NCBI GenBank assembly: GCA_042408215.1
Contig: JAYFMW010000003.1
Location: forward strand, 352,001-416,000
Reading direction: 5' to 3'
Length of the DNA: 64,000 bases
Source: Microcoleus sp.
GTDB taxonomy: Bacteria; Cyanobacteriota; Cyanobacteriia; Cyanobacteriales; Microcoleaceae
Part shown: positions 28,601-55,290 of the stretch, in pieces
Position numbering within the stretch: the stretch's first letter is position 1
How the letters are laid out: every line of letters starts with the position of its first letter
Position numbers and translations under genes: made by a program
The notes under the pieces: model-generated
The model's input: the letters and a program-made list of their open reading frames with translations, nothing else
The model's database searches: none
What the model was told of the DNA's origin: nothing

Positions 28601-29404
28601 CTAAACGCGCCGAATCAAGGTAATCCCATCTCTGAGCGGCACTAACACTTGCTCTACGCGGGGATCGTCAACTAGAGCCTGATTGAATTTAGCGATCGCA
28701 ACTCCGTTAGCAGTAGCAGTACCGGACAAATAGGGCTGTCCCTGCATCAGAGTATTGTCGGCACAAATCAAGCCATTGGGAGCCAACAGCCCAGTGGTGA
28801 GCAGTAAATCGAGATAATCTGTGTATCCAGCTTTATCAGCATCGATAAACACCAAATCGAACACTTCTCCAGCAGCAGCCAATTGTTTCATGGTTTCTAG
28901 GGCTGGTGCGACTCGCACTGAGATTTTGTGACCAACCGTCGATTCCTGAAAACACTTTTGGGCAAATTGTGCGACGTAAGTATCTACTTCGCAGGCTACT
29001 ACTTCTCCATCAACAGGAAGGGCTTCAGCCATCGCTAGTGCTGAGTAGCCAGTGAACATCCCGATTTCCAGCACGCGCTGTGCTTTGGTGAGATGGACGA
29101 GAAATTTCAGCATTTGCCCCTCCACATGGCCGGAGAGCATCTCTTGTTCCAAGTGGCGCACTGTCTCGCCGTCGGAGAATCGCTGACTCCAATCTTCTGA
29201 TTGGGTGCGTTTTACTAAGGTGGCTAAATCCGCAGATTCCGCTGTGGTGCAAAGGTTCAGGTAGGGATCGAGACCATTTGCTAATTCGTAGGCTTGTTGC
29301 AATTCTGCCTTGAAAGCTCGATCGATCCCATCTTGAGACTCTACCTGCTGGACAAGACTTTCCAGTAAAGAGGCTAAAATCCCGACTGGGGTAACAGGTC
29401 TCAT
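28601..29404 (-). CDS. mysB: O-methyltransferase (4-deoxygadusol forming)
   Basis: RPVTP.GI, MLSGHVEGQ, LEIGMFTGYS, FIDADK. Confidence 0.9.
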   Translation of the reverse strand: MRPVTPVGILASLLESLVQQVESQDGIDRAFKAELQQAYELANGLDPYLNLCTTAESADLATLVKRTQSEDWSQRFSDGETVRHLEQEMLSGHVEGQMLKFLVHLTKAQRVLEIGMFTGYSALAMAEALPVDGEVVACEVDTYVAQFAQKCFQESTVGHKISVRVAPALETMKQLAAAGEVFDLVFIDADKAGYTDYLDLLLTTGLLAPNGLICADNTLMQGQPYLSGTATANGVAIAKFNQALVDDPRVEQVLVPLRDGITLIRRV

Positions 29405-29406
29405 CT

Positions 29407-30645
29407 TTATACCCCGGCTGTGGAAAGAGTCCCAACTTTGTCCAATACCACGTACATATTCTCGCCATCACCATTGCGCGGATAGCCATGACAGATTTTT
29501 TGATGCACCGCTAGGGCTTCATCCAACTCAGTTCGAGTCAAATCGTTCATGAAAAAGCAGTCACCAATGGGGCATGGAGCCGCCGCGCGTTGAAGGCCAT
29601 CGCGGGTACGGGCGATGGATGTTGTGGCTTTCCAGAGCAGTTCTGATGTGAGATAGGGGCTATCAATTGCTAGTCCGAGCCGACTCATTAATCCTAGGAT
29701 GCGATCGCGATCGGCGATCGAAATGTAGCCCCGTTGTTGAGCAATCGTCGCCGAAAAAGCCATGTCGATAGCGACACTGTGGCCGTGGAACATCGGAATT
29801 TCCGGTGTTAGTTCCAGCGTCGGACTCCAAGTGTGACCATAAGCAATCACTCGATCCAAGTCTAGCTCGTGTAGGTTTGGTACTTCTAATGCCAGCATTG
29901 ACTCAATGGCGTTGTAGGTTAAGCGATGTGCTACTTCGCGCAGTTCAGATGTGCCGTCTAGATACCCAAAATGGCTATGCAGCAATGCTTCACCGTAGTT
30001 TTCCAGCAACTCAAAGATTTCTTTGTTCCCAACAACCGCGATCTTAATTAACTCTGCCATGCCGTTGCGTATTTGGTCGATCGGCAGAGTTTTTAGGAAG
30101 GAGAAATCTAAAATTACTTTCTTTGAAGCGTGGTAAGCACCGAGGCGGTTTTTCAGTTTACCGTGGTTCACGGCTACCTTGATTGCCACACTGGCATCAA
30201 TCAGCCCAATTAGGGTTGTCGGTACGCGAATGTAGTTGGTCCGACGGCGATAGGAGGAGCAGGCGAAACCAGTTACGTCAGTAGTCAATCCACCACCAAC
30301 CACCAACACAGGTTCTTTCCGCACGAGTCCGAAATCAACGAAGGCATCTATGATGCTTTCAAAAGTTGTTAAGGTCTTATCCGGTTCCTTGATATTCACT
30401 GGAAAGACTGTTAAATCTATCTCGTGATATTTGAAATAAGCCTGCATCTGCTTGCCATACAGACCATACACTGTTTCGTCTACAACCATTAAACAGCGAC
30501 CAAATTGGCGGTAACTATCGGCAATTTCTGGATTTTCAAGCTTGAAAGCACCATCTACATAGAGCAAGCTGAAATCAATTTTTTCGTACCCTTCAATATG
30601 AAAAGCGCGATCGGTAGATGTAAACGTAGCTTGAATGTCACCCAT
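29407..30645 (-). CDS. mysA: Sedoheptulose-7-phosphate cyclase (demethyl-4-deoxygadusol synthase)
   Basis: [39 protein letters not shown]. Confidence 0.92.
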
Positions 30646-31141
30646 AAAATTTTTGCACTTTCGTGTTGATAAGTAACTGTAAGTATCCGGGCGATCGTCA
30701 AAACTATCCATCCTTTTGCTGGCCAACTTCCTAGGCATTAACTTGACAAATTTGTCATTTAATATGATCTTAACAATCCACCTAAAAATTTACTTTCAGA
30801 GCTGTTTGTTAAGAATAGGTTAAATACTGCTTTTCGAGTATTTATACTTAAAGTCCTGCTAGGAGCAAGTTTAGATCGCCTCAATACTTGCACAAAACTT
30901 AACATAACGGATTTCTCATATTTATGCAACCTGATGCCACAAAATCCGATAAAACTGTTGAGAAATATTAGAGAATCGGCGACGATCAGTTCAAAACTTT
31001 ACAATCAATCAGTATTTGACAAAGTTAATGTGTTCTAGAATACTCAGTAAATCCAAGGGCGATCGCTAGCAGAAATAAATGTATAAACTTATACAGAAAG
31101 TTCTATGAGTGTTTGAAATTGACTTAGATCGTCAATTCAGC

Positions 31142-45863: not shown

Positions 45864-45884
45864 ATTCTTAAGTCTCATTTAATT

Positions 45885-46165: not shown

Positions 46166-46206
46166 TGCCAAAATGGCAACACCAGCCAAATTTATTGATT
46201 TACGAT
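46166..46206 (+). promoter_or_regulatory. TGCCA-N3-TGGCA operator + N22 + TACGAT putative -10
   Basis: Same architecture as sites at 50641, 51281, 51360, 51449. Confidence 0.7.
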
Positions 46207-46220
46207 CGTAAAAACTGCAT

Positions 46221-47570
46221 TTGTGGGAATCAAAAACACATAATATCATGGCGAATACTCTATTTTTACAACCAAGTTCTCCCCTGGATAATTCCAATCC
46301 TAACTATGCTCGTGCTACAGGAGGGGCTGTTTTTTCCCACTATAGTCAAACGGCTTCAGGAACTTTGACTGCCACCGAGGCTGATACGTTAGTCAAAGGT
46401 GGGGTATCTGCTGCTATTGCTGATGCCAAAGCTCTAGCTGATTTTAGCAACGATCCAAATTTTTCTGCCCTCTTTACTAACAGTGCTGTAATTGGTATTG
46501 GTGGAGCATCTCAGGGAAGTTCTAGCAGTGAAGCTAAAGTGATTGCTAATTTTTCTGTCGCCAAAAATCAAACTTTCTCTTTCGATTTTGCAACTGGGTT
46601 ACAACTACAAGCCAAAGAAATTGAAAATCCTCAAGCTGAATATAACCAGGCTCAGGGAAAAACCTCTTTCGTTGTGTTAGAAACATCCGATGCCAAAAAG
46701 CCGAAAGTATTAGATTATTTTGGCATGAACGGGAAGTTAATTTCTTCTGAGCGAATCGGCGATCTGAAGTTGGGATCTAGCCGCAACGTTACCATTGCTA
46801 ATCAGCAGAAAAATACTGATATTGATGGCAACAATGGCATAGATTTTGTGACAGGCGCGGCTGGAGGTACATATCAGAGACAGTTTAACAGCGATACAAA
46901 CATAACCATAGTGGAACTCAATACCAGTGACACTAAATTTAAGCAGGATACTGCTATTGGTAAACTAGGTTCAGATGTCACCTATGGCACTATCTGGAAT
47001 GATAAAATAGACGGCACTAAAGACGCAGACGGGAAGACAACCAAAGGCGAAGATGGCGATCGTCAACTAAAGGGAACCAACAGCGCAGACAAAATATATG
47101 GCAGCCTGGGAGACGATCAAATCAATGGAGAAGGAGGCGATGATATCCTTGAAGGTGGTTCAGGCAAGGATAAGTTGGACGGTGGTGACGGAAACGATAA
47201 ACTTTATGGCAGTGATGATAATGATACCCTGACTGGTGGTTCAGGTAATGATACCCTGGTTGGTGGTGTTGGCAATGATGTGATGCGGGGCAATCAGGGT
47301 AAGGATCTCTTTCTTTTCCAGAATGGTGATAGCTTGCTCACAGGGGAGTTAGATGTTATCAAGGATTTCAAAGCTGATAAAGATCAGATGGGATTGCAGG
47401 GATGGGGTACGATTAATGCCTCAGATTTGTTGCGGGGAATTGCGACATCACCATTCCAGATCAGCGATACCAAAGATGGTACTATTTTAAGTTCTAGTTC
47501 GGGTGGAAAAGTTCTTTTGGAAGGTGTGAAATTAACTCAACTCAGTGCCAATAATTTCATGTTTTCTTAA
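46221..47570 (+). CDS. Hemolysin-type calcium-binding (RTX repeat) secreted protein; ATG at 46248 likely
   Basis: GGxGxDxLx nonapeptides and type I secretion-like C-terminus. Confidence 0.85.
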   Translation: MWESKTHNIMANTLFLQPSSPLDNSNPNYARATGGAVFSHYSQTASGTLTATEADTLVKGGVSAAIADAKALADFSNDPNFSALFTNSAVIGIGGASQGSSSSEAKVIANFSVAKNQTFSFDFATGLQLQAKEIENPQAEYNQAQGKTSFVVLETSDAKKPKVLDYFGMNGKLISSERIGDLKLGSSRNVTIANQQKNTDIDGNNGIDFVTGAAGGTYQRQFNSDTNITIVELNTSDTKFKQDTAIGKLGSDVTYGTIWNDKIDGTKDADGKTTKGEDGDRQLKGTNSADKIYGSLGDDQINGEGGDDILEGGSGKDKLDGGDGNDKLYGSDDNDTLTGGSGNDTLVGGVGNDVMRGNQGKDLFLFQNGDSLLTGELDVIKDFKADKDQMGLQGWGTINASDLLRGIATSPFQISDTKDGTILSSSSGGKVLLEGVKLTQLSANNFMFS

Positions 47571-47636
47571 ATAGGCATCCAAATGAGGGGCTTTTCCCAA
47601 CAGAGTTGTTCTGTCATAGCATGAAATTAACAGCCA

Positions 47637-47673
47637 AAATAGAGGGCATCCTCAGCTAGGATGCCCTCTATTT
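47637..47673. terminator. Bidirectional hairpin between convergent genes
   Basis: AAATAGAGGGCATCCT/AGGATGCCCTCTATTT. Confidence 0.7.
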
Positions 47674-47855
47674 CGATCGCTGTCAATCCCAGTGACTAAC
47701 TTAATTTGGTGCGACGGTTCCGCGATTAAGCTAACTGCTAGAAGGTGAAACTATCCTGTGGCTGAAAATTTTAGAGCGCTCTTATGATGGAGCGCTCCTT
47801 GATTATCGGCAATTCGACAAAATTAATGTCAAACCACCGTCCAAATTTCGACCAT

Positions 47856-50018
47856 TTAGCCAAAAATGATAGTATCTCCCTTGGCAGCACTAAAGCCCGT
47901 ACTGCCAGCAGCCTTGTAGAGCGTATTGAAGCCCTCGCTGGTGTAGTTACCCCAAGCATCAGGGCCGACCCCACTAGAGGATGTGAGTCGGTTGGAGATC
48001 ATAGTGCTGCCTCCAACCTTAGCAGTAGCTCCAGTAGCGTTGTAGATACCACCACCAGTTGCGGCGCGGTTCCCAGAAACCAAGCTGTTGTTTCTCAGGG
48101 TTAAGGTTCCTGGTGTTGTGCCATTACCATTATAGATACCGCCACCTTGTCCGGCTGTGGAATTGCTCTTGATGGTGGTGTTCGTTATATTGGCGGTTCC
48201 AACATTAAAGACACCACCGCCAGCACCGGTACTACTCGTTGTCTTGTTGCCTTGAATCAGGGTGTTGTCCATAGAAACTATTGTGCCGAAGTTGGCAATG
48301 CCGCCACCGGCTTTGACCGCCGTGCCATTGTTAATTAGACTGGTAGTGACAGTCACAGAGGCTCCAGAACGGTTATAGATGCCGCCGCCGAAGCCTCCCG
48401 CCTGATTATTGTTGGAGAAGGTATCGTTATCTAACGTCAGGGCAGCACCAGTCGAATTGTAAATTCCACCTCCATCTGTAGAGATGGCTTGGTTGGTGTT
48501 AAATGTACTATTTCTTGCCTCCAGAACACCAGAGTTTAAGGCAGCACCGGACTTAGTGTTGTAAATTCCACCACCACTAATGCTGGCTTTGTTGCTGTCA
48601 AAAGTACCGCCGTTCACCACCATATTGCCAGCGTTATATATCCCAGCGCCATATTGCTGGGCAATGTTACTGTTAAATTTACTGTTGACCACGTTGACTA
48701 AAGGCAGGGAAGAATTGGCCACGGAGCTACTGGCATTGTAAAGCCCACCGCCCTGTACCGCAGAATTATTACTAAATGTGCCACCGCTTACCAGCATACT
48801 GCCAGCATTGAATATTGCACCGCCAATTTGTGATGAACTATTAGCATCAAATGTACTGTTGCCCACGGTGAGGGCGGCACCAGTGGGGTTGTAAATCGCA
48901 CCGCCCTGTAATGCGGAATTCTTGCTAAATGTGTTGCCGCCATTCAATAGCAAACTACCAACATTTAATATTGCACCGCCAACTTGTGATGCCTTATTAT
49001 TTGTAAGTGTACTGTTGGAGAGTGTTAGAGCACTTCCATTGTTGTAAATTCCAGCACCAGCACCAGCACCAGCAAAACCTTTGTCAATAGTGACTCCGGT
49101 AATATTTACGGTTGCACTGACTAAAGCGCTATTCACAACCTTCTGAATCACAAATACGCGACTAGCATTATTACCACTAATGGTGAGCAAATTTGCTCCC
49201 GGGCCAGTAATTGTAAGGTCATCGCCGATTACCAGTTGTCCAGTCGTCAGGGTAATGGTATCTGGAGTAGTATCAGCCATCGTTCCTGTAAAGTTGATCG
49301 TATCAGCACCCGCCGCCGCATTGGCATCTAAAATTGCCTGACGCAATGAGCCCGCGCCACTGTCACTGTTATTGGTGACAGAAAACGTTGCCAGTGTGTG
49401 ATTGTAGCCTTCCTGTACCGAGGATGGCAAAATGTTAGGGTTTTCGATCGCCCCAGTCGAAAACTCCAAGTTCCAGTTACCTCCCACAGACGCGCTACCT
49501 GTCAGGTCTTTAGACGCTCCTACATCGGCTCCAGTTAGCTCGTCAATTTGTTGCACAAAGTCTTGCCCCGCTTTACTAGCTGCCACATTGCAGCCATAAA
49601 GCAGAATGTCCGCATCTTCGGTTAGTGATCCTCTCCAATTAGTCAGCTTATCGGCATAGTTACCCAAGTTATTGAGATTGAGATCTGTCGCTCCAAGTTG
49701 TAAATGTCCATCGCTACCATGGGAGAAGATAGACAAACTCTTAATGTCACTCAGACCTGATAGAACTTGAGTAATCTGAGTTAATTCATCTTGTGATGGA
49801 TCGAGTACCCATATATCTGTGTTCGGCGGCAAACCCTTAACTAAGTCTTGATAGTCTTGAACATTGGAGTCAATGAAAGCAATATTAGAAGACTTAGAAG
49901 TTTGTCCAAGGGTGCGGAAATGCTCCTGTCCTGTCCCCCCTAAATAAGCCATCGCACTGGATGGGGCGGCGGGAATACCAGAAAGTGCTGAATTGTCAGG
50001 CGAGTACCATGTTTGCAT
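47856..50018 (-). CDS. DUF4347 domain protein with polymorphic-membrane-protein-like GG(A/G)I(Y/F)N beta-helix repeats
   Basis: IAFIDSNV, SHG, LLYGCNVA, GGNWNLE, DSGAGSLRQAI, many GGAI/GGGIYN repeats. Confidence 0.85.
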   Translation of the reverse strand: MQTWYSPDNSALSGIPAAPSSAMAYLGGTGQEHFRTLGQTSKSSNIAFIDSNVQDYQDLVKGLPPNTDIWVLDPSQDELTQITQVLSGLSDIKSLSIFSHGSDGHLQLGATDLNLNNLGNYADKLTNWRGSLTEDADILLYGCNVAASKAGQDFVQQIDELTGADVGASKDLTGSASVGGNWNLEFSTGAIENPNILPSSVQEGYNHTLATFSVTNNSDSGAGSLRQAILDANAAAGADTINFTGTMADTTPDTITLTTGQLVIGDDLTITGPGANLLTISGNNASRVFVIQKVVNSALVSATVNITGVTIDKGFAGAGAGAGIYNNGSALTLSNSTLTNNKASQVGGAILNVGSLLLNGGNTFSKNSALQGGAIYNPTGAALTVGNSTFDANSSSQIGGAIFNAGSMLVSGGTFSNNSAVQGGGLYNASSSVANSSLPLVNVVNSKFNSNIAQQYGAGIYNAGNMVVNGGTFDSNKASISGGGIYNTKSGAALNSGVLEARNSTFNTNQAISTDGGGIYNSTGAALTLDNDTFSNNNQAGGFGGGIYNRSGASVTVTTSLINNGTAVKAGGGIANFGTIVSMDNTLIQGNKTTSSTGAGGGVFNVGTANITNTTIKSNSTAGQGGGIYNGNGTTPGTLTLRNNSLVSGNRAATGGGIYNATGATAKVGGSTMISNRLTSSSGVGPDAWGNYTSEGFNTLYKAAGSTGFSAAKGDTIIFG

Positions 50019-50260
50019 ATCTAATTCTTCCTTTTTTATCAGGGGTGACTAATTGTTTATTTAGCTTGATTAAAGCCATAAATTTCCACAGAGTTCACGA
50101 AAAAAAAATCAATGGTAGACAGGATTTAATTGGCTCTAAAAACGTGGCTAATTCTAAACAGATTTTTTTTTGTTTTTGTTATTTGTTTAGAGTGAAATTG
50201 AATGCTTGAATGGTCATAGGTAATATTCACCTCAATGCCATTACATGACCAGTATCCTTC

Positions 50261-50551
50261 TTACTGACTGATAGCCGCCACGGAGGTGCTGGAAGAGAAA
50301 GAACCAGTGCCATAAGTTACCACAGCCAAGGTATTAGCCATTGTGAAGCTGTCAAGAGTTCCGTCGTAGGTTCCAGGATCAGCAACGGCTTTAGCACCCG
50401 CAGAAGCGTAGTTGCCGGAAGACAAGGATGGGGAGTTGATATTAAGAGTAAACGAATTTTTAGTGCCGAAGCTGACGGTATTTTTCAAACCACCTTGAAC
50501 CGCCGCAGCTTCAGAAACAACTTCCAAGTAATTCAGATCAGAAATATTCAT
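50261..50551 (-). CDS. Small secreted-type protein with double-glycine leader (paralog 1)
   Basis: MNISDLNYLEVVSEAAAVQGG leader; AAGGA RBS; clear paralog at 50906. Confidence 0.8.
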   Translation of the reverse strand: MNISDLNYLEVVSEAAAVQGGLKNTVSFGTKNSFTLNINSPSLSSGNYASAGAKAVADPGTYDGTLDSFTMANTLAVVTYGTGSFSSSTSVAAISQ

Positions 50552-50612
50552 TGTTTTGTCCTTTTTGTTTGTGATTTGTTTGTCAGAAGCAACTTTTTGT
50601 GGTTCTGTATTT

Positions 50613-50653
50613 AAGATAGGGAGAATAATCAGACCTGTGTTGCCATTTTGGCA
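50613..50653 (-). promoter_or_regulatory. TGCCA-N3-TGGCA operator + N22 + TATCTT putative -10
   Basis: Palindrome at 50641-50653. Confidence 0.7.
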
Positions 50654-50905
50654 GATTAATTTTGACTGGGGTGAAAATTACAAAAATCACCTCCTCTAAT
50701 ATTAATTATGTCAAAAATTTCAAGAAAATACATTTTTTTGACAGTCATATTAATAACTTAATTGCCATTCTATTTGACTAACTAAGCTAATGATAAACAG
50801 ATAACAAAAATGGAGTTTCTGTTATCTGTTTATAGTGAAATTGAATGATTACGGGGTCATAGGTAACATTCACCTAAATGCCATTACCTATGACCAGTAT
50901 GCTTC

Positions 50906-51205
50906 TTAGTTATTGATAGCCGCAACGGAGGTGCTGCCAGAGAAAGAAGCGCCGCCATAAGTTACTACAGCTAAGGTGTCAGCTTTGGTGAAGCTGTTCA
51001 AAGTACCGCAGTAGTCGCCATCAGCAGAGGCTTTAGCACCAGCAGAAGCGAAGTTGCCGTCAGGCAAGCATGGGGCGTCGATCGTCAGAGTAAAGGAATT
51101 TGTGGTGTTGAAGGTGATATCAACGGTATCGGTTTCAGACCAACCACCTTGAACTGCGGCAGATTCCGAAACAACTTCCAAGTAATTCAGGTCAGAAATA
51201 ATCAT
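50906..51205 (-). CDS. Small secreted-type protein with double-glycine leader (paralog 2)
   Basis: MIISDLNYLEVVSESAAVQGG leader; AAGGA RBS. Confidence 0.8.
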   Translation of the reverse strand: MIISDLNYLEVVSESAAVQGGWSETDTVDITFNTTNSFTLTIDAPCLPDGNFASAGAKASADGDYCGTLNSFTKADTLAVVTYGGASFSGSTSVAAINN

Positions 51206-51252
51206 GGCTTTTGTCCTTTTTAAAGTGAGGTTTTTTTGTTTTCCTGTTACCT

Positions 51253-51848
51253 AATTTAGCTTGCCTTGTGGTGTCTGTGTTGCCATTTTGGCAGAAGCTT
51301 TTTTCGGTAACAACTTTGTTTGTCTGTAATCAATCTATCAAAGGTTAACAAGGATATGTTGCCATTTTGGCAGAAGCTTTTTCTGTTTGGCTGAACAACT
51401 TTGTTTCCTTCGATGTCCTTAATATAACTAGGCTTTTTCCACCTGTGTTGCCAATTTGGCAGATTTATGATTTTTTTTTGAGATGAATTGGGTGCCGGGC
51501 TAAAACCCTTTGTTTAAGCAGGTTTTACTCATAAATAAGACTCTGAAAATTTCCCAAACTTTCAGAGCCGATAGTTTCACTAGATTTTTTAGCACCCATT
51601 TATAAGATGAGATGGTCACTGAGTGCCTTGGACAAAAGTTGCCAAAATGGCAGTTTTCAGAAGAGACGAGTCAATTCTCAAAACCTTGCCATTTTGGCAG
51701 ATTTTTGGGAAGGGAAATATGAATTAGGCGCGCCAAAATCTTGAAATCTTCACAGATTCTTTACATACAATTTATTTAGTTCAGATTCTGGAATGCCCAT
51801 AATCTATATCTAAATATAGAAAACAGGGGGTGTGTTGCCATTTTGGCA
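51253..51848 (-). promoter_or_regulatory. Cluster of six TGCCA-N3-TGGCA operators
   Basis: Palindromes at 51281, 51360, 51449, 51640, 51687, 51836. Confidence 0.75.
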
Positions 51849-51928
51849 GGTTTTTAATTGAGAGATGGAATTTGAATAACGATCGCGATCGCGAGCAATC
51901 AATAATAACTCTTGCACATCAGTCAGCT

Positions 51929-53204: not shown

Positions 53205-53315
53205 AGGTTTGGTTTTTGTGGGACAAATTGTGATATCTTTCTAAAACCTGAAAGCGGGAAAGTCCGGTGCAATTCCGGCGCTGTGCCGCAACTGTGAAAG
53301 TCAGAATGCCGATTT
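53205..53315 (+). promoter_or_regulatory. Cobalamin riboswitch (compact form)
   Basis: GGGAA..CCGGTGCAATTCCGG..CTGTGCCGCAACTGT..AGTCAG core upstream of cobG. Confidence 0.85.
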
Positions 53316-53361
53316 CGGGTTGACTTGTTTATTTCCCTGCGTCGCACGGGGAGGAGTTTCT

Positions 53362-55064: not shown

Positions 55065-55290
55065 GTCAGGAACTCAGGTCTAAAGACACGCTCGCTTGTA
55101 AGAAATTACAAGCTATTCTGACCAGACCCCTTTCACGAGGAGACGTTATTTAGGTCACGATACCGGAGAATGCGACGCTAGTTTTCCGCTCTATCATCTG
55201 CAATTAAACAGTTTTAAAGTCACTGAAACAGTGTTGCAGGTCAAAAAAGCCTTTATAACCAGGTCGAAGCGAACATTACAAGCAATTGGA
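55065..55290 (+). ncRNA. IscB omegaRNA (HEARO-like) scaffold
   Basis: GTCAG...CTGACCAGA, ACGTTA, GAATGC..GCTAG..CGCTCT, TTAAACAG..AACAGTG, GTCGAAGCGAACATTAC directly upstream of iscB. Confidence 0.8.

Follow-up and report, generated by a model that had tools for sequence, protein, structure and literature searches.

A palindromic box 22 nucleotides before a -10-like hexamer: a candidate class II activator promoter of an export and extracellular-matrix regulon in cyanobacteria

The locus described here raises the question of whether a short palindrome, TGCCA-N3-TGGCA, that recurs upstream of genes for predicted secreted proteins is a promoter element and, if so, which genes it serves and which protein reads it. 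It lies in a 64,000-nucleotide stretch of Microcoleus sp. (GenBank assembly GCA_042408215.1, contig JAYFMW010000003.1, positions 352,001 to 416,000 of the forward strand), called the window below; the genome that contains it (G000; 7.36 Mb, 45% GC) is called the source genome. Its hetP-like gene and promoters resemble those of named Microcoleus and Microcoleaceae records, which suggests a filamentous cyanobacterium of the Microcoleus type. An earlier note, made from the letters of the window alone, had proposed a new regulon confined to a local island of secreted proteins, comprising an RTX protein, two precursors with a GG leader and a DUF4347 protein. Taken as a whole, our evidence is best explained, with a probability of roughly 0.85, if the box is a class II activator-dependent promoter element of a regulon for export and the extracellular matrix, and this phylum-wide promoter is apparently undescribed.

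Palindromes and hexamers of the window

The pattern TGCCANNNTGGCA occurs nine times in the window, compared with 0.11 copies expected and a maximum of two in 100 shuffles, and a search of the window with one mismatch allowed gave no further copies. Eight of the palindromes begin at 46166, 50641, 51281, 51360, 51449, 51640, 51687 and 51836, exactly where the earlier note had placed them. It had noticed none elsewhere in the window, and a ninth, TGCCACACTGGCA at 30184, had been missed; we judge this copy to be a chance match outside the system.

When the boxes are read with the A-rich spacer forward, five are followed at exactly 22 nucleotides by a hexamer (TACGAT, TATCTT, TAAATT, TAGATT and TATATT; Table 1), as had been claimed. 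Each hexamer is the sole TANNNT at spacings of 15 to 29 on its side, and no TANNNT was found on the opposite side of the five boxes. One of these predicted promoters aims at the RTX gene, one at GG precursor 1 and three, in tandem, at GG precursor 2, in agreement with the targets first proposed. None of the five was listed by a sigma-70 scan; the site at their activator position is TGCCA-N3-TGGCA and not the NtcA box GTA-N8-TAC, and TCCGGA, the DIF1 motif of sigma-HetZ, is absent from their -35 position. The box at 51836, CTGCCAAAATGGCAACA, is a sixth site with the same reading, but its TATATT lies at 17 nucleotides, not 22, and the right half-box therefore occupies the position of a -35 hexamer. 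The boxes at 51640 and 51687 form an inverted pair with 19-nucleotide arms, 34 nucleotides apart, which has no hexamer and is missing from the homologous stretch of genome G226.

In a terminator scan, seven of the eight boxes come up as candidates when read against the promoter direction, with a T-rich run behind each of them, and the palindromes might accordingly be small hairpin terminators for antisense transcription. Their stems, however, have 5 to 6 pairs, with 3 G-C pairs and a 3-nucleotide loop, and a hexamer fixed 22 nucleotides away on the other strand would be left unexplained, so that we find this reading scarcely credible. A different caution comes from the relatedness of the copies. 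The two precursor genes arose, promoters included, by duplication and are 78-86% alike; upstream of precursor 2, the promoters are three tandem units of 79-89 nucleotides. Since the copies are related by duplication, the window alone cannot separate function from descent.

Conservation beyond the window

The source genome contains 20 plain palindromes, 15 of them with an A/T spacer. Exact TGCCAAAWTGGCAA sites number 14, against 1 in the reversed control, and a bipartite matrix of box and hexamer yields 15 sites with a score above 22, against none in the reversed genome. Outside the window, two sites have TANNNT at 22 nucleotides: C22:34375, directly past a cluster of C39-ABC, HlyD and hetP-like genes recognised by domain searches, and C30:668200, which precedes a GG-leader graspetide-type precursor whose relatives are followed by an ATP-grasp ligase.

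The spacing is distinctive in sites picked by the box alone. Among 53 such sites from the source genome and loci L001-L030, chance matches included, TANNNT stands at 22 nucleotides in 28, at each other downstream spacing from 14 to 31 in at most 3, and at 22 on the other side in none. The box occupies -47 to -35 and the TANNNT -12 to -7, and no TTGACA-like conservation is seen at -35 to -30. The box consensus is aAa(t/c)C-TGCCA-AA(A/T)-TGGCA-AC, with equally conserved half-sites and asymmetric flanks, A-rich upstream and AC downstream. Clusters picked by their HetP gene gave a box (score of at least 16) in 17 of 20 cases and in none of the reversed sequences; with the hexamer left unscored, 20 of their 37 boxes have TANNNT at 22.

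The exact promoter is present in 51 of 251 genomes sampled from the phylum, and the reversed control gave 1 match in all of them. By family, it was found in 10 of the 12 genomes of the own family, in 26 of 32 of f7, which we take to be Nostocales-type from named Nostoc, Calothrix and Nodularia records with the same locus, and in 3 of 107 of the small-genome family f37, where the single matches look like chance. In a scan of the collection, 56 of the 80 matches listed (of 122 loci) are cyanobacterial. Among the matches listed, 55 of the 56 cyanobacterial ones lie outside long open reading frames, compared with 10 of the 24 others, and an extra C past the box, which the pattern did not ask for, is present in 42 of 56 and 3 of 24, respectively.

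Extended boxes number 141, partly selected on the 22 spacing (the unselected counts being the 28 of 53 and 20 of 37 given above), and have TANNNT at 22 in 114 cases and at 17 in 7. These seven, the site at 51836, whose right half ATGGCA stands -35-like 17 nucleotides before TATATT, and the asymmetric flanks would suit an operator for repression, or an alternative sigma factor that itself reads TGGCA as its upstream element. For the 114, however, the distance is too great for a sigma -35/-10 pair, the two half-sites are conserved alike, and the HetZ sigma factor reads TCCGGA (PMC13342950). We regard an operator or sigma element as improbable.

A functionless dispersed repeat, or a duplicated leader region riding with duplicated genes, would account for the tandem and gene duplications of the window and for the insertion-like pair at 51640/51687. 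It would also account for five homologous sites of the source genome (C6:103451, C6:457718, C6:898772, C20:450710 and C30:135803), a repeated cassette of about 85 nucleotides that reads TTTAAT or TTAATG at 22 nucleotides, contains an exact box in four cases, and precedes unrelated genes such as a glycosyltransferase and a polysaccharide-cluster gene (names from sequence, not domain-scanned). Against this, only box and hexamer are kept between families, while the sequence of the 22-nucleotide spacer diverges; the targets (GG and graspetide precursors, RTX, PEP-CTERM-type and HlyD genes, a small RNA) are unrelated; and the promoter triplet of precursor 2 is kept across genera, in G002, in G226 with a decayed middle unit, and in G256 of another genus. 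The randomly placed repeat against which the earlier note had set its proposal is thus disfavoured, and we consider it very improbable. Coupling at 22 nucleotides, one-sided orientation, intergenic placement and secretion or matrix targets all hold genome-wide and across many cyanobacterial families. What has to be widened is the idea of a regulon belonging to one island: the shared promoter of export genes stands, but it is not local and reaches exporter clusters and unlinked genes.

Target genes, an associated RNA and the island

Over 86 loci, the commonest neighbours of the box are hetP-like genes (29), HlyD (21), C39-ABC exporters (20), peptidyl-prolyl isomerases (PPIase, 17) and GG precursors (16). 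The box is positioned before GG arrays, between exporter and HlyD, and before RTX, PPIase and PEP-CTERM-type genes; further targets are Nif11-type precursors and graspetide precursors, including those accompanied by an ATP-grasp ligase. These positions support as targets the group II clusters of C39-ABC, HlyD, HetP-like and PPIase genes together with unlinked genes for exported proteins. A plasmid search for hetP-like clusters gave no match.

In the source genome, a long-type C39 ABC transporter, HlyD, a SurA-type PPIase and a HetP-like gene lie together on contig C22, in trans to the window. In G226, a single cluster contains the exporter, HlyD, a hetP-like gene, a box, the RTX orthologue, another box, a second RTX gene and the GG promoter set; the RTX orthologue directly follows the hetP-like gene and matches the window protein at 76% over the first 251 amino acids. 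Since G226 joins the exporter with orthologues of the window genes, the island would be a displaced piece of such a cluster, with its exporter on C22. The island adjoins cphA, on its downstream side, also in G008, and in G005 it is accompanied by the DUF4347 gene. Among 29 relatives, 5 were found to have the RTX gene; its two distant homologues in G184 have no box.

Some box sites show peculiarities of their own. Past the box at C22:34375-35345 (L157) there are only fragments of an RTX-repeat gene and then a PPIase gene, and the intact precursors are those of the window. At L001:1916 and L182:9916 the box lies inside the hetP-like coding sequence (residues ENCQIG), directly past the conserved helix, and the former has TAGTAT at 22 nucleotides. 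In five Nostocales loci (L033, L043, L046, L090, L098), the box past the hetP-like gene lies ahead of a degenerate stretch that resembles a GG precursor, is interrupted by stops and has a core, GTTGC.AATGGTGGTTCTTTTT, that is conserved; the stretch may be a pseudogene or an RNA. Two genomes of one genus carry a box and TATTAT (L178:4639, plus strand; L179:6341, minus strand) before a second conserved non-coding stretch, which has a G/C stem closed by a GCAA loop.

Whether the regulon serves a matrix or antagonism had been left as an alternative; of the two, a matrix seems to us the more probable. Both precursors of the window can be aligned with 12 from other clusters and show the I-x-DL-x-YL-E...GG leader. 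They have no Pfam match and fall into no NCBIfam family at E 0.01, the CTB family bacteriocin included, and precursor 2 has no PDB sequence match. Wang et al. (2011) class such clusters as group II bacteriocin clusters (PMC3140520), and the boxes of graspetide precursors with an ATP-grasp ligase would likewise fit a service of antagonism by bacteriocins and protease-inhibiting graspetides. The box, however, also precedes RTX, PEP-CTERM-type, PPIase and glycosyltransferase genes, the precursor cores are uncharged, rich in small residues and present in tandem copies, and the GG motif is no predictor of bacteriocin activity (PMC12267927); antagonism therefore seems unlikely to us as the main purpose. 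In Synechococcus elongatus, amyloid-forming matrix proteins with a GG motif are exported by a C39 transporter (PMC12267927), and the processed precursors would most likely serve as abundant subunits of a matrix or sheath.

The most constant target in Nostocales is a non-coding stretch with a long stem, an AGCCCC(C) loop and a terminator, in which no conserved open reading frame was found. In 10 sequences, from which the structure itself was derived, 16 of 46 pairs change on both sides, a value reached by none of 500 shuffles. Rfam gave no match at gathering score in six loci, two of which contain the RNA, and 12 short strings of it were not found in the supplements of PMC4734099, where two 9-letter matches and one 8-letter match lie in unrelated rows. 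Judged by its sequences, this would be an apparently undescribed, covarying structured RNA. A model of the RNA part matches 24 of 27 f7 genomes and none of 17 others, the source genome included. All 30 fetched RNA loci (of 37 matches), among them second copies located next to other genes, have the box upstream, 145-320 nucleotides before the loop, and 29 show TANNNT at 22; scores in reversed controls do not exceed 4.7. Conservation of the RNA resumes 6-7 nucleotides past the hexamer, i.e. at the predicted start.

Table 1. Features of the window (with examples of the Nostocales RNA from other loci)
Feature	Position	Strand	Details
Ninth palindrome, G/C spacer	30184..30196		inside dehydroquinate-synthase-like gene; no hexamer at 22
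Box TGCCAAAATGGCA of RTX-gene promoter	46166..46178	+	predicted -47..-35; kept before the orthologue in G226, G005, G020, G008
-10-like TACGAT	46201..46206	+	22 nucleotides past box; predicted start ~46213
RTX calcium-binding repeat protein	46248..47570	+	440 amino acids; PF00353, E 9e-35
19-pair hairpin	47634..47676		between convergent RTX and DUF4347 genes
DUF4347 + beta-helix protein	47856..50018	-	720 amino acids; own box absent; same gene order in G005
GG-leader precursor 1	50261..50551	-	96 amino acids; MNISDLNYLE...GG leader, Ala/Ser/Gly/Thr-rich core
Precursor 1 promoter	50613..50653	-	box 50641-50653; TATCTT 50618-50613; predicted start ~50606
GG-leader precursor 2	50906..51205	-	99 amino acids; 72% identical to precursor 1
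Precursor 2 proximal promoter	51253..51293	-	box 51281-51293; TAAATT 51258-51253; predicted start ~51246
Precursor 2 middle promoter	51332..51372	-	box 51360-51372; TAGATT 51337-51332; predicted start ~51325
Precursor 2 distal promoter	51421..51461	-	box 51449-51461 (TGCCAAATTGGCA, minus strand); TATATT 51426-51421; predicted start ~51414
14-pair hairpin, T-rich tail	51539..51569	-	upstream of promoter triplet
Inverted box pair 51640/51687	51634..51705		no -10 hexamer; local insertion or inverted duplication
Box 51836-51848 with TATATT	51813..51848	-	hexamer 17 nucleotides downstream; homologous site in G226
Nostocales RNA, examples	L079:4195-4385; L105:4185-4380; L249-L278	+ (L079, L105)	1-4 copies per genome

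From their sequences, the RTX protein is a probable substrate of type I secretion and the hairpin that follows its gene a probable terminator shared with the DUF4347 gene (Table 1). No minus-strand terminator-like site was found between 50261 and 50018, and the DUF4347 gene is possibly read through from precursor 1. A short transcript begun at the 51836 site could terminate at the hairpin at 51539. On the minus strand of 51470-51850, the box at 51836, the inverted pair and this hairpin could define a structured transcript of about 270 nucleotides (folding z -4.9, in part owing to the inverted pair). That no regulator is encoded here, as had been stated, is right for the island; in the rest of the window it bears on the 15 proteins that were scanned with Pfam. 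Elsewhere in the window, Rfam places an AdoCbl-II riboswitch between cobalamin genes (53240-53319, plus strand) and a HEARO RNA at 55065-55279 (plus strand). The ninth palindrome belongs to a pair of genes at 28601-30738 (minus strand), dehydroquinate-synthase-like and O-methyltransferase, which we take to be the usual start of a mycosporine pathway.

Parts of the region are contained in 19 RNA-library runs, of which four were compared, as assembled contigs only. In run X1, the cphA contig stops short of its terminator, at 45878; a second contig starts at 46223, 10 nucleotides past the predicted RTX start, and another ends near 50575, some 30 nucleotides inside the predicted start of precursor 1. 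Such contig ends are weak hints in favour of the predicted starts. Leader pieces of precursor 2 occur in all four runs; their depth in X1, in the thousands as against 23 for the cphA contig, pools paralogues and other organisms, and genes were not ranked by it. Positions 51423-51723 are without contig cover, which proves nothing, and the published start-site supplements of Nodularia contain no promoter sequences.

Mechanism, candidate binders and known systems

We propose that a dimeric transcription activator binds the box, centred near -41, where it would replace the missing -35 element and recruit RNA polymerase with a primary-type sigma factor; the polymerase would then open the TANNNT hexamer (class II activation), and the A-rich upstream flank would suit the tail of its alpha subunit. 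One such regulator may co-activate the group II C39 exporter cluster (HlyD, hetP-like, PPIase), the GG precursors and the RTX substrates, and might also drive graspetide precursors, PEP-CTERM-type proteins, some polysaccharide genes and the small RNA of Nostocales. The geometry of the class II promoter in the original proposal is borne out, with the box at about -41 and no -35 element; the activator and the starts 6-7 nucleotides past the hexamer are what we infer from it.

Several points weigh against an activator-dependent promoter of this kind. At 22 nucleotides, TANNNT is missing from three of the eight sites in the window and from seven of the 14 exact sites of the source genome. The matrix applied to the HetP-picked clusters was trained partly on sites from 2 of the 20, and the genomes and loci are kin, so that the counts overstate independence. 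A contig of run X4 (record 12) spans 50248-50677, across the predicted start and box of precursor 1. Genome G019 keeps an intact-looking promoter, behind which no precursor was found, and neither a HetP nor an exporter orthologue was found there. Finally, no family was matched by the precursors, whose matrix role is therefore argued from their composition and by analogy.

The binder was sought through co-occurrence in 64 genomes examined for both promoter and HetP and chosen with promoter status known. All 32 promoter-positive genomes have a HetP-family gene, and the promoter is present in none of the 23 HetP-negative ones; in each of the nine HetP-positive genomes without the exact promoter, a less strict form of the box stands at the cluster or the RNA. 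From five box-less genomes of the same genus, HetP is missing as well, as are close orthologues of the PPIase and the ATP-grasp ligase. Two apparent exceptions, G018 and G012, are explained by contigs that end at HlyD, while G019 is a genuine one. Because of this co-occurrence, a HetP-like protein is the lead named candidate for the activator. That the binder is the cluster's own HetP-family protein is nonetheless a guess, offered tentatively, for the co-occurrence fits an activator and a fellow target alike and cannot separate them.

The HetP-like protein is assigned to NF037966 (E 8e-30), and a basic helix with hardly any variation, P-x-R-T-Y-x-R-L-x-K, closes the HetP domain. A leader-like tail is present in 54 of 142 HetP relatives, against 0.19 in shuffles. 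Tandem HetP-HetP proteins occur naturally (P0001, P0008, P0012), and in P0070 the domain is fused once to what appears from its sequence to be an EAL-like domain, hinting at a dimer and at a link to cyclic di-GMP. A low-confidence structure model shows three helices (mean pLDDT 57) whose best fold match (Z 3.3) is to no known DNA-binding fold; no PDB sequence match and no Atlas match outside the family were found. HetP homologues are thought to interact (PMC9045159), and loss of hetP removes ChIP peaks of sigma-HetZ (PMC13342950). In a bolder version, which we consider doubtful, HetP-family proteins would be dimeric, sequence-specific class II activators reading TGCCA-N3-TGGCA, their GG-motif tail would be bound or cleaved by the C39 exporter and so couple export to transcription, heterocyst HetP/HetC would re-use this ancient module of secretion control, and in Nostocales no target of it would be better conserved than the box-driven RNA.

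We see about an even chance that the activator is instead an unlinked helix-turn-helix regulator (XRE, LexA-like or another 5-N3-5 dimer). XRE-type dimers typically read 5-N3-5 sites whose spacer is A/T. The co-occurrence of HetP may mirror only that of the target clusters, its model offers no known DNA-binding fold, the promoter of G019 persists without it, and it is described as binding DNA nonspecifically (PMC13342950). If a core regulator with other targets were at work, however, the promoter would not be expected to be missing from all 23 HetP-lacking genomes. Moreover, LuxR- and CRP-type proteins are mostly kept in motif-lacking genomes, the devH box is private to the source genome, and the clusters read show no recognisable regulator other than an IS630-like helix-turn-helix gene in some Nostocales, which the source genome lacks.

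Candidates considered and set aside include this IS630-like gene, for which the source genome has no match. Its 199-amino-acid product, the DNA-binding part of an IS630 transposase, is encoded at L090:777-1376 (minus strand) and in L064, L075, L193, L194, L196 and L199; its gene lies immediately ahead of a second C39 exporter in Nostocales, its tail carries an I-x-DL motif resembling that of leaders, and it looks like a domesticated regulator. DevH as an autoregulated binder was rejected, since the devH box scores 18.7 in the source genome and at most 11.9 in 25 other devH upstream regions (3 more being unorientable); DevH might still bind elsewhere. Sigma-HetZ was dismissed as a reader, its motif being TCCGGA. 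A LuxR-type binder lost with the system is not supported, as 10 of 14 such proteins of the source genome have orthologues at 84-98% in motif-lacking G016, where two further ones have matches, one at 73% and one at 93% along a short stretch; CRP-type proteins, too, are mostly retained in genomes without the motif. This comparison of losses covered LuxR, CRP and 30 of 69 XRE matches. In G025, a changed residue in the HetP helix goes with variant boxes, but Microcoleus-type proteins combine another change with canonical boxes, and the case was not used.

In kind, the promoter is nothing unusual, a familiar mode of activation with a new box, and its interest lies in its reach, in the new RNA and in the direct test it offers of HetP function. 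It provides an operator and a target list for an exported-protein regulon, of whose control little is known, in cyanobacteria that form mats and crusts, as well as a strong candidate promoter part. The biochemistry of the HetP family becomes testable, as does the reason why hetP-like genes adjoin C39 exporters such as HetC, and attention is drawn to a covarying RNA in most of the searched genomes of one family.

A search of the full-text literature for the motif strings found no cyanobacterial paper, motifs given only as logos, subscription papers and start-site supplements being beyond reach, and the box is not given in the accessible parts of PMC10068817, PMC12267927, PMC11420160, PMC11345509, PMC10986499, PMC9045159, PMC3610870, PMC9846622 and PMC3140520. 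The clusters found here resemble the group II 'bacteriocin' clusters in their long-type C39 ABC transporter with a cNMP domain, HlyD, SurA-type PPIase, HetP-like gene and precursor arrays, and Wang et al. (2011) had noted the motif KIXDLXYLEX10GG in HetP-like proteins (PMC3140520). In the available text of that paper, however, HetP is treated as a possible precursor, the word promoter is absent from the main text, and box, unlinked targets and RNA are not mentioned. The EbfG1-4/PteB biofilm system of Synechococcus elongatus PCC 7942 likewise comprises small GG-leader proteins with C39 export, a matrix role and co-regulation as a block (PMC12267927, PMC11420160, PMC11345509), but its known control runs via SigF1 and a secreted inhibitor, and no operator is given in the accessible parts. 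DIF1 promoters of sigma-HetZ share a cyanobacterial motif near -35 that is functionally tied to HetP, and differ in sequence and in having two motifs 16-17 base pairs apart read by an ECF-type sigma factor (PMC13342950). HetP, Asl1930, Alr2902 and Alr3234 of Nostoc PCC 7120 belong to the same family, NF037966, and hetP adjoins the C39 exporter gene hetC, whose substrate is unknown (PMC10986499). The Nostoc proteins are described as commitment factors and nonspecific DNA binders of heterocyst formers, whereas here a single HetP copy, in a genome outside the Nostocales-type family, tracks a specific box.

The nearest parallel is provided by the class II promoters of NtcA, with the geometry GTA-N8-TAC-N22-TAN3T. 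Both kinds of promoter have a palindrome ending at -35, 22 nucleotides to TANNNT and no -35 consensus. The NtcA site is centred at about -41 (PMC3610870). The promoters described here differ in their half-sites, in the odd length of the box (13 base pairs, centred on a base pair) and in its A/T spacer of 3; they serve exported proteins and not nitrogen assimilation, and they occur only with group II clusters and the Nostocales RNA.

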